A stretch of 61,710 nucleotides of DNA from Eubacteriales Family XIII. Incertae Sedis bacterium (lineage in GTDB: Bacteria > Bacillota > Clostridia > Peptostreptococcales > Anaerovoracaceae), in NCBI GenBank assembly GCA_031266795.1, contig JAISAI010000082.1, positions 1 to 61,710 on the forward strand, given 5' to 3'. Made by a program: the position numbers and the translations under genes. The first letter of the stretch is position 1. Every line of letters starts with the position of its first letter. The notes beneath the pieces were generated by a model that was not told the DNA's origin, did not search any database, and saw nothing but the letters and a program-made list of their open reading frames with translations. This document shows, in pieces, positions 16,352 through 38,647 of this stretch.

Positions 16352-16927
16352 ATGGCTGATTATTCTATCGTATCGGATGTAAGCGCGTATATCGTGCGGA
16401 CGCTCAGGGAGAGGATGTGCCCGGAGCCTATCCCGTCGCCGAACAATATCGAGGTGTCCTCGCCCGCGGAGCAGGATGTGGACTATATCCTCGGCCTGTA
16501 CCTCTACGACATCGCCGAGGAGCTCGAGGTGGCCATGCCGCCTCTGCCCAATCCCTCGAGGACGCAGCTGAAGCCGCCGCCCAAGCCCTACGCGCTCTAT
16601 TACATGCTCTTCATCAACGGCTCGTCGCAGATGGGGCTCAAGGCGCACGATATACAGAAGATCATAGGCCGCGCGGCGCAGGTCGTGAACGACGGGAGCA
16701 TTTTGGCGCCGCGGCAGATGCAGCCGTGGCTTGAGGCGGACGAAGCGCCCATATTCATCAGGCCGGCGCGCATCGCGCTCGACGAGAAAGTGCGCGTCTG
16801 GTCGGCGATCAACAAACCGTATCAGGTGAGCCTGTTTTACAAGGCCGCGCCCATCCTGCTGTCGAGCGAGATCACCATCGACACGCCGCGCGTCACAGAT
16901 GCGGAATTTAACATAGAGATCGGGTAA
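16352..16927 (+). CDS. CIS tail terminator/cap, DUF4255 (Pvc16/Afp16 N-terminal domain) protein
   Basis: SDVSAYIVRTLRERM...IEVSSPAEQDVDYILGLYLYDIAEE fits the DUF4255 N-terminal pattern. It sits at the head of the sheath-tube block. Confidence 0.75.
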   Translation: MADYSIVSDVSAYIVRTLRERMCPEPIPSPNNIEVSSPAEQDVDYILGLYLYDIAEELEVAMPPLPNPSRTQLKPPPKPYALYYMLFINGSSQMGLKAHDIQKIIGRAAQVVNDGSILAPRQMQPWLEADEAPIFIRPARIALDEKVRVWSAINKPYQVSLFYKAAPILLSSEITIDTPRVTDAEFNIEIG

Positions 16928-16938
16928 GGGGGAAACGA

Positions 16939-17703
16939 ATGGCGCCGGCAGCGACAATCAGGCATAGGGTAGACCTCGCGATGACCTTCGTCGACACGGC
17001 GAAGGGCGGCCCCGCGAGCGGCCTCCTCAAGCTGTTCCGGGATGGGGACACGCTGCCCTTCCGCCAGGATTCCGGCGGGACCGCGCTGCTTTTGGACGCG
17101 GGGCGCGAGGACTTCACGCTGCGCGTCGTCATGTCGGGCTATGAGCCTGAGGAGATGCGGGTCGCGTACGCCGACCTTGACGAACACATGCCCCACGTCG
17201 AAGCCGAGTTGATCCCTTTGGATCTCATAGGCGCGGAGCTGTTCACATTCGCGGGGGATATGCCGGGACTGACCGAGGTGGACGCGGTAAGAATCGGGCC
17301 GACGGCGTGGACGGTGCAGGAAACCGACGAGCGCAAGCGTCTGTTGACGGTGCACAGCCTGTACAACAATGACATCACGGCTAAGCGCTGCGCCCTCATC
17401 GCGGTGGACGAAAGCGCGTATGAGCCGATCGACATAGTGAAGCGCCTGTCCAAAGGCGTCTACAAATTGAGGGAAGCGCCCGGAGCGGATATATCCGGGC
17501 TGTACGTGGCCCGCAGGGTGATGGGCAAGGCGCGGGACGGGCGCTACCTGTTGCGCCTGCCCGGCGACCTCACGGGGGCGCGGTGGCTTTTGCGCACCGT
17601 GACGGCGGACGGCGCGGTGTTCCGGGCCTTTGACTCCGCCGGCGCGGGCAGGCCCCCGGACGGCGGGCGCATCCCGATAGACGCGGCAATGAAAGGAGGG
17701 TAG
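16939..17703 (+). CDS. CIS-associated hypothetical protein (N-terminal beta-sandwich, carboxypeptidase-regulatory-like)
   Basis: Lies between the DUF4255 and sheath genes. FVDTAKGGPASGLLKLFRDGDTLPF...FTLRVVMSGYEPEEM has a CarboxypepD_reg-like pattern; weak call. Confidence 0.45.
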   Translation: MAPAATIRHRVDLAMTFVDTAKGGPASGLLKLFRDGDTLPFRQDSGGTALLLDAGREDFTLRVVMSGYEPEEMRVAYADLDEHMPHVEAELIPLDLIGAELFTFAGDMPGLTEVDAVRIGPTAWTVQETDERKRLLTVHSLYNNDITAKRCALIAVDESAYEPIDIVKRLSKGVYKLREAPGADISGLYVARRVMGKARDGRYLLRLPGDLTGARWLLRTVTADGAVFRAFDSAGAGRPPDGGRIPIDAAMKGG

Positions 17704-17798
17704 CATTGCATCAAATATTATGAAAGATTTTAATGTAGGGAATATTGTTTGCGGAGAACATGAAAGGAGGAGGTCCTTGGATGTAACATCCGGACTGA

Positions 17799-37545: not shown

Positions 37546-37549
37546 CGAT

Positions 37550-38260
37550 ATGAGAAACGAAGACGATTCACTTAAAAAATATGTCAACGACCTGACGCAC
37601 AGCCTCCGTATGCCGCTGTCGATCATCATCGGCTACGCGGAGCTCTTGAAGCAGGGCCGCGTACCGGACGAGGCGACGCGCAGGCAGTACATCGGAAAGA
37701 TCTACGACCGGGCCACGTACATGAATGAGATACTCAGCAATTTCGTGTCCGAGACGGAGTTTGACCTCGGCGCGGATAACGTCGTCCGCGTGGCAGTCGA
37801 CGTCGTGGGGCTCATACGCGGCATCGCCGAAGACATGAAGCCGGTCGCGGAGGCGGAGGGCGTGCGGATCCGGGTCGAGAGCGAAGAGAAGAAGATCGAA
37901 GTCGAGTTGGACACCGTCCAATGGATGAAGATGTTCTACAATCTCGTGGACAACACGCTGAAATACAAGGGACGCAAGACGGACATCTGGATCACGGTGT
38001 CTACGGACGGGAACGGCTGGCTGCTCGTCGTCTTTCGCGACGAGGGCATAGGCCTCCCGGAAGCGGAGATAGCACACATCTTCGAACCTGATTACCGGGG
38101 CAGCAACAGCAGCGATGGGCACGGCTTCGGGCTGCATCACGCGAAGCATGTAGTGGAATCGCACGGCGGGGAGATTTCCGCAAAGGGCGGCGTCGGCAGG
38201 GGTCTCGGCGTCTACATACGCGTACCCGTCTCATCGCCCCGGGCGGAAAGGAGGCCGTAG
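37550..38260 (+). CDS. sensor-less cytoplasmic histidine kinase (DHp plus HATPase_c only, 236 aa)
   Basis: H-box: LTHSLRMPLSIIIGYAELL. N-box: VDNTLKY. G1: FRDEGIGL. G2: GHGFGLHHAK. No TM or sensor domain is possible because the ORF starts 4 nt after the ATPase stop. Confidence 0.85.
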   Translation: MRNEDDSLKKYVNDLTHSLRMPLSIIIGYAELLKQGRVPDEATRRQYIGKIYDRATYMNEILSNFVSETEFDLGADNVVRVAVDVVGLIRGIAEDMKPVAEAEGVRIRVESEEKKIEVELDTVQWMKMFYNLVDNTLKYKGRKTDIWITVSTDGNGWLLVVFRDEGIGLPEAEIAHIFEPDYRGSNSSDGHGFGLHHAKHVVESHGGEISAKGGVGRGLGVYIRVPVSSPRAERRP

Positions 38261-38647
38261 ATGGCGGTCTGCGCATGTACGGGAGCGAGCATGTTCTGCT
38301 CATTCGGCCTCGCGCCGTCCACCCTCAACGTGACGTCAAACCTAAAGGTGCTGACGTCCAAGCCCGCGGCGACCATCATGGACTTTCGGCCGATGGTCAA
38401 CATCCCGCCGTTTGGCATGTGTACGTCGCTCGCAAACCCGATGGTGGCGTCCGCGACGGCGGCGGCCCTCGGCGTGCTGACGCCCATGCCCTGCATCCCC
38501 AACACCATGGCCCCGTGGATCCCGGGCAGCCCCATGGTGATCATAGGGAATTATCCCGCCCTGTCAAGCACCTCGCAGCTGATCTGCGCCTATGGCGGCA
38601 TGATAAAAATCATCTCCCCCGGACAGATGAAGGTGCTTGTGCCGTAG
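38261..38647 (+). CDS. DUF4280 (PAAR-like) spike-tip protein
   Basis: CTGASMFCSFGLAPSTLNV...IMDFRPMVNIPPFGMCTSLANP...PCIPNT..PWIPGSPMVIIGNYPAL...LICAYGGMIKIISPGQ. The ATG directly abuts the kinase stop codon. Confidence 0.8.
   Translation: MAVCACTGASMFCSFGLAPSTLNVTSNLKVLTSKPAATIMDFRPMVNIPPFGMCTSLANPMVASATAAALGVLTPMPCIPNTMAPWIPGSPMVIIGNYPALSSTSQLICAYGGMIKIISPGQMKVLVP

Follow-up and report, generated by a model that had tools for sequence, protein, structure and literature searches.

The window analyzed here, a stretch of 61,710 nucleotides (nt) of clostridial DNA (contig JAISAI010000082.1, Family XIII), contains a headless contractile injection system (CIS), whose conserved locus extends from about position 5295 to 38647 (~33 kb, 27–28 genes). 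A train of open reading frames (ORFs) on the + strand at 16352–38647, the flagged interval, had been recognized as a headless CIS gene cluster in a first reading of the sequence alone, and this gene set is real, almost every assignment being supported by sequence profiles. However, the system is larger than the start then given at 16352 would imply, because six genes further upstream share a conserved order with the CIS in related loci, as a synteny table reveals. These six + strand genes (5295–16334), which abut the gene for the CIS cap protein and set the 5' limit of the conserved locus at about 5295, encode a Cis13-like baseplate protein and five proteins of the cell envelope. Since the CIS is always inherited together with envelope genes and a signaling system, a membrane-docked function is suggested, and docking is further supported because the closest solved sheath belongs to a membrane-bound CIS. 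The host is probably a clostridial bacterium of Gram-positive type from the Family XIII group that has not been cultured. We see an even chance that the locus encodes a clade-IIa-type CIS that has an envelope complex of its own to dock to in this host and fires outward in the manner of a type VI secretion system (T6SS).

Inheritance of the injection system together with an envelope module

How closely are the upstream genes tied to the injection system? Related loci were gathered via sheath homologues, via the 1014-residue Baseplate_J protein of the CIS and, in metagenomes, via the HAMP-domain protein of the upstream module; one further locus was gathered via the family of the Cis13-like protein encoded at 5295, a scan of a genome collection with the 1014-residue Baseplate_J protein gave 3 loci, and the synteny table was compiled by tblastn. 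In every locus that is long enough the genes follow the order 5295-7114-8012-10419-11636-13707-DUF4255-254 aa-(DUF4280)-sheath-tube, where numbers denote positions in the window and the 254-residue (aa, amino acids) protein is described below. This order of the module beside the CIS is kept in ~17 loci, that is, in all long enough, of Family XIII, Oscillospiraceae and Lachnospiraceae. Where loci found via the HAMP protein reach far enough, the cap and sheath genes follow downstream without exception (12/12), all loci found via the sheath (4/4) have the module upstream, and the locus found via the Cis13-like protein has the identical gene order. The linkage spans Family XIII, Oscillospiraceae, Lachnospiraceae and Hydrogeniiclostridium, with identities of the HAMP protein down to 24–30%, and the identities of module and sheath proteins fall together across loci (rho 0.46–0.72). 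Relatives are found in metagenome-assembled genomes (MAGs) of Family XIII, Oscillospiraceae, Lachnospiraceae, Hydrogeniiclostridium, Oscillibacter and Agathobaculum and in the cultured Pseudoflavonifractor phocaeensis, there with protein WP_204882172.1, the nearest to the window being MAGs labeled 'Clostridiales Family XIII' with a sheath identity of 76–77%. The lineage is common, with thousands of sheath homologues, and extends to human gut genera of which some members are in culture.

The best solved match of the sheath protein Cis2 (17799–19502; Pfam Phage_sheath_1 and 1C) is 9EZM, the Cis2 of the archaeon Halogeometricum borinquense, over the full length (E 2.6e-107, 37% identity). The sheath of the Streptomyces CIS follows (E 6e-92), and the sheaths of Afp and PVC match the C-terminal half only (E 1e-43 to 1e-48). 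By cryo-electron tomography the H. borinquense CIS is bound to the cytoplasmic membrane, and it mediates contact-dependent antagonism (PMC11566945). Moreover, 14 structural proteins of the window match proteins encoded on pHBOR03, the archaeal plasmid region referred to as L030 below. For both Baseplate_J proteins the solved matches are Streptomyces Cis11 only. Best matches, two cis11 genes and a cis13 homologue point to membership of the system in clade IIa, the haloarchaeal T6SS-like lineage.

The five envelope proteins encoded at 7117–16334 have ~2,300 residues predicted outside the membrane in total. The first (7117–8004, with the true start likely at 7117 or 7153; ~284 residues) is, by hydropathy, a tail-anchored membrane protein with a cytoplasmic N-terminal domain and a C-terminal transmembrane (TM) helix. 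This helix is conserved in an alignment of 12 relatives, and the family has neither a Pfam match in per-member scans nor a PDB match by sequence. The second protein (8012–10402) is polytopic; a Pfam HAMP match, hydropathy and alignments of relatives outline an ectodomain of ~300 residues, ~4 TM helices, the HAMP domain and a conserved cytoplasmic domain of ~300 residues. The region after the HAMP domain (residues ~490–796) is the best-conserved part, with many invariant residues and a C-terminal WYxFACE motif, and for this domain no Pfam family or solved structure was found by sequence, a PDB profile search returning HAMP and transducer chains only. An assignment of the domain as a degenerate nucleotide cyclase was dropped, as the PDB-profile and Pfam searches gave it no support. 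The third protein (10419–11636), which is conserved in 23 loci, is a bitopic MORN-repeat protein (Pfam E 3e-11) with a TM segment at residues 70–88 by hydropathy.

The fourth protein (11636–13705) is TolC-like and matches the Pfam OEP family in two stretches with 39.9 bits against a cut-off of 22. An AlphaFold2 (AF2) model built on 50 homologues (predicted local distance difference test score, pLDDT, 82.7) starts with a helix that would be a signal or an anchor, continues with two hairpin repeats of the TolC type, whose helices reach 72 residues (~100 Å), and ends in two beta-sandwich domains. At the position of the outer-membrane barrel the model has only short strands and no obvious beta-barrel. 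A Foldseek search with this model retrieved TolC, OprM and CusC (E 1e-9, prob 1.0, TMt 0.55–0.59). The 574 homologues, of ~680 residues, carry the NCBI name 'TolC family protein'. Repeat signature and the predicted long alpha-hairpin fold thus both fit the OEP/TolC family, and a Pfam search of the module detected no RND, MFP or ABC pump genes. The fifth protein (13707–16334) is a bitopic coiled-coil protein with a TM segment at residues 18–36 and a large extracytoplasmic region, according to hydropathy. Six of its 11 relatives contain a Cu_amine_oxidN1-type domain (Pfam), and a PDB profile search with the family yielded coiled-coil noise only.

A Cis13-like protein at the head of the locus

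The gene at 5295–7334, which heads the membrane module and lies 26 kb from the Tail_P2_I gene, encodes a Cis13-like baseplate-periphery protein conserved in 16 related loci. Its N-terminal domain matches H. borinquense HBOR_RS17690 (415 aa) in tblastn (E 3e-11) and in hhalign (prob 98.1%, E 1e-13, 135 columns), and the archaeal gene sits just upstream of the sheath gene. HBOR_RS17690 is Hbor_38810, listed as cis13, 'tail-fiber protein', next to the sheath gene Hbor_38820 (PMC11566945 Table S1), and in the same study Cis12 and Cis13 were assigned to peripheral baseplate densities that touch the membrane (PMC11566945). Because of this N-terminal match, a Cis13 homologue does exist outside the flagged interval, and the earlier statement that no fiber gene is recognizable fails for the locus as a whole, since 5295–7094 encodes the homologue of a protein annotated as tail fiber.

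Is this protein a fiber or an adaptor? The family comprises 394 homologues of ~597 residues, and no Pfam domain was found in 50 members scanned. In the AF2 model (pLDDT 75) beta-sandwich domains are strung together behind a conserved N-terminal anchor, and residues 366–390 form a disordered linker. Foldseek relates these domains to the immunoglobulin (Ig)/MG/BIG2 type, with matches to complement MG domains, invasin and BIG2-decorated phage tail proteins. In the family the majority frequency is 0.66–0.80 at the C-terminal end, 0.72–0.79 in the anchor and 0.44–0.57 in the middle, and nearly all of the 150 best representative clusters have a length of 580–615 residues. The conserved C-terminal end and the uniform length would be unlike a target-recognition fiber and argue against this function. 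Equal conservation of C-terminal end and anchor fits a fixed partner better than a fast-evolving receptor binder.

A catalogue of fibers of extracellular contractile injection systems (eCIS) from 2026 defines an N-terminal anchor, eBAP3, which is used with Tail_P2_I adaptors, has been likened to TssK and is common in Bacillota (PMC12923769). The 'C3b/BIG' eBAP3 fiber of Flavonifractor sp. An92 described there has 584 residues, split into 10–363 and 384–522 (PMC12923769). Compared by description only, size, domain split and fold classes of this fiber agree with those of the 5295 protein, and a Tail_P2_I gene is also present in the window locus. The An92 fiber gene adjoins its Tail_P2_I gene, unlike the distant 5295 gene, and the catalogue does not describe a membrane module (PMC12923769). 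From this comparison the 5295 protein may well belong to the eBAP3 group. The proposal that it is a Baseplate_J paralogue was rejected, there being no BLASTP similarity and the N-terminal motif in question being absent from Baseplate_J N-termini.

The conserved part of the 5295 protein ends near 7094, and the ORF in the window continues for ~75 codons to 7334. Within 7090–7334 the stop codon of the Cis13-like gene appears lost: relatives end ~7 residues past the motif ...VVVKKK, and the window has TCGTGTGATG where a stop/start overlap of the TCGTGATG type is expected, so that ~75 additional, arginine-rich codons overlap the beginning of the gene that follows. The cause could be either a real difference of 2 nt or an assembly error.

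Gene content of the injection system

Unless stated otherwise, the assignments of the structural genes, which are all on the + strand, rest on Pfam, NCBIfam and PHROG profile searches. With Pfam and NCBIfam matches above the cut-offs, sheath, inner tube, gp25, Baseplate_J, spike, DUF4255 cap and AAA+ ATPase are encoded together, and by gene set and absence of head genes the locus comes under the definition of the CIS superfamily (dbeCIS; Geller et al. 2021). Among the large window ORFs screened no capsid, portal or terminase gene was found, with a few ORFs near 57.7–60.3 kb left unscreened, which bears out what had been read from the sequence, and head genes were also not seen in the related loci examined. 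The further statement that LysM, holin/endolysin and toxin domains are missing is upheld within the detection range of the Pfam, NCBIfam and PHROG profiles, by which these and other lysis domains were found neither in the interval nor in the screened large window ORFs. T6SS families of Pfam had no match in any ORF examined, and DUF4157 effectors are, unlike in the haloarchaeal system, not present at the window locus. The intergenic gaps within the flagged interval range from -23 to 108 nt, wider than the 0–30 nt given at first and still tight.

The cap or terminator protein Cis16 (16352–16927; DUF4255/Pvc16_N, Pfam E 4e-27) is followed by the conserved 254-residue protein (16939–17703), encoded between the cap and sheath genes and found in 16 related loci with 26–44% identity; neither this protein nor its family has a Pfam, NCBIfam, PHROG or PDB match, per-member Pfam scans included. 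Beyond the sheath gene are those for the inner tube Cis1a of the gp19 family (19606–20160; Pfam E 8e-31), a tail-assembly-chaperone-like protein (20269–20631; PHROG 508, E 3e-9) with a 49% identical haloarchaeal counterpart, a small DUF6760 protein (20652–20834; Pfam E 5e-14) and a second tube-like protein of Cis1b/Afp5 type (20868–21371), the last recognized by a weak gp19 match (E 2e-3), TIGR02241 and BLASTP similarity to the first tube (E 4e-5).

For the 785-residue protein encoded at 21384–23741, earlier called a tape measure, no Pfam, NCBIfam or PHROG match was obtained. Its position just 5' of the tube initiators, its variable length (785–1025 residues across relatives) and a conserved C-terminal motif, VYxxVERxLxxERARRGK, speak for the assignment, and it is therefore retained as a putative tape measure or ruler-like protein. 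In the archaeal region L030, a 2,192-codon open frame at 7705–14283 (pHBOR03 65704–72282) ends in LYRKLERKRRMERQRRGF before the stop, just ahead of the archaeal tube-initiator genes. This LYRKLERKRRMERQRRGF ending is the C-terminal motif of the putative tape measure in the window and its relatives; RefSeq annotates only the last 182 codons of the frame. In the description of the haloarchaeal CIS, cis14 was not found (PMC11566945).

The baseplate region begins with two tube initiators of the CIS_tube family, both without LysM (23752–24522, Pfam E 1e-13; 24535–25290, Pfam E 2e-16), the second being a paralogue of the first. Then follow a gpD/VgrG-related baseplate hub (25334–26512; NCBIfam VgrG_rel E 4e-13, PHROG baseplate hub), the gpV/Cis8 spike (26525–27337; Pfam Phage_base_V E 2e-21), the gp25-like sheath initiator Cis9 (27351–27776; Pfam E 2e-15) and the two Baseplate_J proteins recognized by Pfam, a large one of 1014 residues, Cis11a-like (27773–30817; 25% identity to a haloarchaeal protein of 1064 residues, E 2e-52), and a second one of 697 residues, Cis11b-like (30852–32945; PDB 9gtp_1K E 2e-17). 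Three unassigned ORFs had been singled out in the sequence-only reading for a search for fiber or toxin folds. One of these, at 32979–34088, is a Tail_P2_I/Cis12-like wedge protein (Pfam Tail_P2_I, NCBIfam CIS12_fam, TIGR02242), and the other two, the 254-residue protein and a low-complexity ORF of 98 residues (34171–34467), have no profile match. The low-complexity ORF has tblastn matches beside the AAA+ gene in three relatives (L002, L010 and L012). The Cis15-like AAA+ ATPase itself (35179–37545; Pfam AAA E 4e-28) is 34% identical to the haloarchaeal CIS ATPase (E 1e-55), and the train closes with a DUF4280 (PAAR-like) spike tip (38261–38647; Pfam E 1e-33).

Two-component system and other possible regulators

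Two ORFs of the flagged interval that had been left unrecognized encode, according to Pfam, an OmpR-type response regulator (34445–35182, + strand; Response_reg and Trans_reg_C), which is locus-linked in relatives, and a histidine kinase (37550–38260, + strand; HisKA and HATPase_c), and their genes flank the AAA+ gene. The kinase appears to be soluble and to consist of the DHp and CA domains only, with no TM helix by hydropathy and no sensor domain. With a kinase and a receiver/DNA-binding regulator, the interval is thus predicted to encode a two-component system. In relatives, response regulator, AAA+ ATPase and kinase are always linked to the CIS, and their place varies by branch. In the window, as in L002, the regulator-AAA+-kinase block and the DUF4280 gene occupy the 3' end. 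In most relatives (Oscillospiraceae-type, L009–L026) the block is found at the 5' edge in a divergent arrangement, with the ATPase and response regulator genes on the - strand and the kinase gene on the + strand, and in these Oscillospiraceae-type loci the DUF4280 gene directly precedes the sheath gene. In L001 and L003 the block is absent from the 5'-edge position.

Directly upstream of the locus a STAS-domain ORF of 99 residues (4893–5192, + strand) was read from the sequence; it resembles an anti-sigma-antagonist and is 35% identical to a Pfam-called STAS ORF of L003 that adjoins the DUF4280 gene there. A near-consensus promoter-like site, TTGACA-17-TATACT, precedes it at 4788–4816. Most relatives lack the ORF; possibly it is a regulator particular to this lineage, and whether it belongs to the CIS system is uncertain. 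In L003 the STAS gene and a gene for a dCache-HAMP-SpoIIE-HATPase_c_2 protein lie directly 3' of the DUF4280 gene; STAS and SpoIIE-type genes may provide partner-switching control in the Family XIII branch. The window also encodes, at 2180–3694 on the - strand, a 504-residue protein with a sigma-70 region 4 near the N-terminus and a long C-terminal extension, which, ~1.2 kb from the STAS gene, may be a regulator of the sigma/anti-sigma type.

Mode of action

How could such a system act on its surroundings? In the docked configuration favored here, the particle would assemble in the cytoplasm, and its baseplate periphery, formed by the Cis12/Tail_P2_I and Cis13-like proteins, would dock on those parts of the tail-anchored and HAMP proteins that face the cytoplasm. 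Beyond the membrane, inside the wall, the complex would be built from the MORN, TolC-like and coiled-coil proteins. An envelope signal could be coupled to expression or firing by the HAMP protein, which may form a split sensor kinase with the kinase that lacks a sensor. On contraction, the tube and the spike with its DUF4280 tip would be driven out through the envelope of the producer and not from a free particle. An intracellular or membrane-docked mode had been guessed before from the absence of fiber, LysM, lysis and effector genes. This guess is supported, but by the upstream module and the haloarchaeal kinship of the sheath; the argument from absence itself is weaker because a Cis13 homologue exists outside the interval, the regulators had been overlooked and variable genes at the edges of related loci are possibly cargo.

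Several points weigh against docking. We infer the mode of action from gene linkage and from one characterized relative, whose sheath is only 37% identical. On pHBOR03 at 58–107 kb there is no homologue of any of the five clostridial membrane proteins and, conversely, the 5295–16334 module contains no homologue of a 6-TM archaeal protein of 388 residues that fits what has been published on the anchor Hbor_38620. As the module proteins lack a pHBOR03 match, the anchoring solution, if it is one, is not homologous. The bore of a TolC-like trimer leaves far too little room for a CIS tube, and the TolC-like protein therefore does not simply act as a conduit. The passage of the tube across a thick Gram-positive wall is without explanation, which is a weak point. 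At the level of profiles no effector or cargo was identified in the window. Finally, the Cis13-like protein bears Ig/BIG2-like domains, as adhesins and fibers do, and similar Firmicutes_A proteins have been catalogued as eCIS tail fibers (PMC12923769).

A more far-reaching version, possible although doubtful, would see in the locus a Gram-positive counterpart of the T6SS in Clostridia of the gut and insect gut, with a five-protein trans-wall complex, of a kind not described before, as anchor to the cytoplasmic membrane and with outward firing on contact. Equally tentatively, it would cover the cultured Pseudoflavonifractor and Agathobaculum and combine a two-component control of its own, a HAMP sensor and a TolC fold in cells without outer membrane.

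Alternatively, the locus could encode a classical eCIS, a possibility that appears rather unlikely. Lysis of a subpopulation would free the particles, the Cis13-like protein would be a short Ig-domain fiber, and the module would serve release, regulation or self-protection. The gene set indeed fits the published eCIS definition, a Tail_P2_I adaptor is present, and the 5295 protein combines a baseplate-anchor-type N-terminal domain with Ig/MG/BIG2 domains in a size and domain split that match the eBAP3 C3b/BIG fiber of Flavonifractor sp. An92 (PMC12923769). However, no holin, endolysin or other lysis gene was found in or beside the locus, the end presumed to bind a receptor is as conserved as the anchor in a close family of nearly uniform length, the five strictly syntenic membrane proteins have no counterpart in the Afp, PVC and AlgoCIS loci, and the closest characterized relative is membrane-bound.

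It could also be imagined that the CIS acts inside its own cell as in Streptomyces, with particles afloat in the cytoplasm, the module sensing envelope stress and triggering firing into the own membrane, with death or a sporulation-type switch as outcome. This is consistent with Streptomyces sheaths being the second-closest solved ones (E 6e-92), with the Baseplate_J matches to Streptomyces Cis11 only, with a locus rich in signaling genes (HAMP, two-component system and STAS; in L003 STAS and a SpoIIE-type phosphatase/kinase), and with the need of the Streptomyces CIS for the membrane protein CisA with its sensor-like domain (PMC12237407). Nevertheless, the module with five proteins and ~2,300 residues is far larger than CisA and more than a trigger seems to need, and the sheath is closer to that of the contact-dependent haloarchaeal system, which makes such self-directed firing unlikely.

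DUF4255, the AAA+ ATPase and DUF4280 are markers of CIS, and an ordinary or decaying prophage, that is, a myovirus tail module with head genes elsewhere, is most improbable and was rejected, albeit every structural gene is a phage-tail homologue, in view of 1) the absence of capsid, portal, terminase, integrase, lysis and other packaging genes among the large ORFs screened in 61.7 kb, 2) an empty viral-contig scan and the lack of tRNA genes, 3) the same headless layout in ~30 loci and 4) the distance of the sheaths in phage records, which are all below 60% identity (best 38%).

Edges of the locus and flanking DNA

Two relatives carry a variable large edge protein, of 460 or 979 residues, and the two are mutually non-homologous. 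In L010 (89–2380) and L029 (5847–9644, - strand) a large protein is paired with a protein of 280–300 residues with a GNAT-like motif, and these smaller partners are weakly homologous to each other (~21% identity). In L010 the pair adjoins an extra DUF4280 gene, and the pair has no equivalent in the window. It is a candidate cargo/adaptor pair.

Downstream of the locus, at 40000–46000, the GC content of the window is 0.47–0.51 compared to ~0.60 elsewhere, and TraX, a GNAT acetyltransferase and an IS110-family transposase (44166–45482) are encoded there, probably a separate insertion. Further on, the - strand at 45750–57810 encodes giant proteins of 2,830 and 1,182 residues with Listeria-Bacteroides (Flg_new) repeats, of which the larger has 16 matches. 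These giants are probably surface proteins, which would fit a Firmicutes host.

Comparison with known systems

Contact-dependent contractile injection is known from the Gram-negative T6SS and since 2024 also from haloarchaea. To our knowledge, the only Gram-positive CIS studied are the cytoplasmic Streptomyces systems. The lineage described here supplies a list of parts amenable to genetic testing: the Cis13-like, tail-anchored, HAMP, MORN, TolC-fold and coiled-coil proteins and the two-component system. If the membrane-docked reading is true, this would be a third, independent way of anchoring a CIS, a new weapon or signaling device in gut commensal Clostridia and a function for TolC-fold proteins in bacteria without outer membrane. 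CIS of Clostridia have already been catalogued, and Streptomyces, cyanobacteria and haloarchaea provide known cases of CIS that work without fibers or bound to a membrane; literature searches found no description of the clostridial lineage, the six-gene module or a TolC/MORN-linked CIS.

With the haloarchaeal CIS the window system shares the chaperone-like and DUF6760 proteins, the second tube, spike, gp25, two Cis11, Cis12, the AAA+ ATPase, the DUF4255 cap and the N-terminal domain of Cis13, and in both a membrane protein is encoded beside the cluster. The differences are that the tip is a PAAR protein in the archaeon and a DUF4280 protein in the window, where the initiators lack LysM; that Cis13 has 415 residues in the archaeon and ~600 with Ig-like domains in the window; that the archaeal cluster as annotated has no two-component system, which is present in the window; and that the host here is a peptidoglycan-walled bacterium.

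The Streptomyces CIS, which in Streptomyces coelicolor is of class IId (PMC12237407), resembles the window system in its Gram-positive host and the lack of a classical fiber. In addition, it depends on a cluster-encoded membrane protein, CisA, whose extracytoplasmic domain resembles a sensor (PMC12237407), and to which the module of the window may be likened. CisA is, however, a single bitopic protein, whereas the window has five membrane or extracytoplasmic proteins plus the Cis13-like protein, regulation in Streptomyces does not involve an embedded OmpR-type two-component system, and the host is an actinomycete (Actinomycetota) there and a member of the Clostridia here. The remark in the sequence-only reading that such systems are essentially uncharacterized in Gram-positive hosts consequently stands for Clostridia alone, because the Streptomyces CIS has been characterized (PMC12237407) and Firmicutes_A gut isolates appear in the fiber catalogue (PMC12923769).

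Afp and PVC of Serratia and Photorhabdus share with the window the sheath, tube, gp25, Baseplate_J, spike, cap and AAA+ ATPase, and both are headless as well. They differ by three sheath genes as compared to one in the window, which has a Tail_P2_I wedge and neither an Afp13-type adenovirus-like fiber nor downstream toxin genes nor LysM.

To the T6SS, with its TssJ-TssL-TssM complex and TssK, the likeness does not go beyond logic and topology. Sequence searches revealed no homologue of TssJ, TssL, TssM or TssK, and a single Phage_sheath_1 protein, the lack of ClpV and a host without outer membrane set the window system apart from a canonical T6SS. The logic of the two may nevertheless be similar: a shoulder-type baseplate protein, the Cis13-like one (it is eBAP3 that has been likened to TssK), is encoded beside a tail-anchored protein, which has the topology of TssL, and beside a polytopic one, which with its large domain outside the cytoplasm could take the role of TssM.

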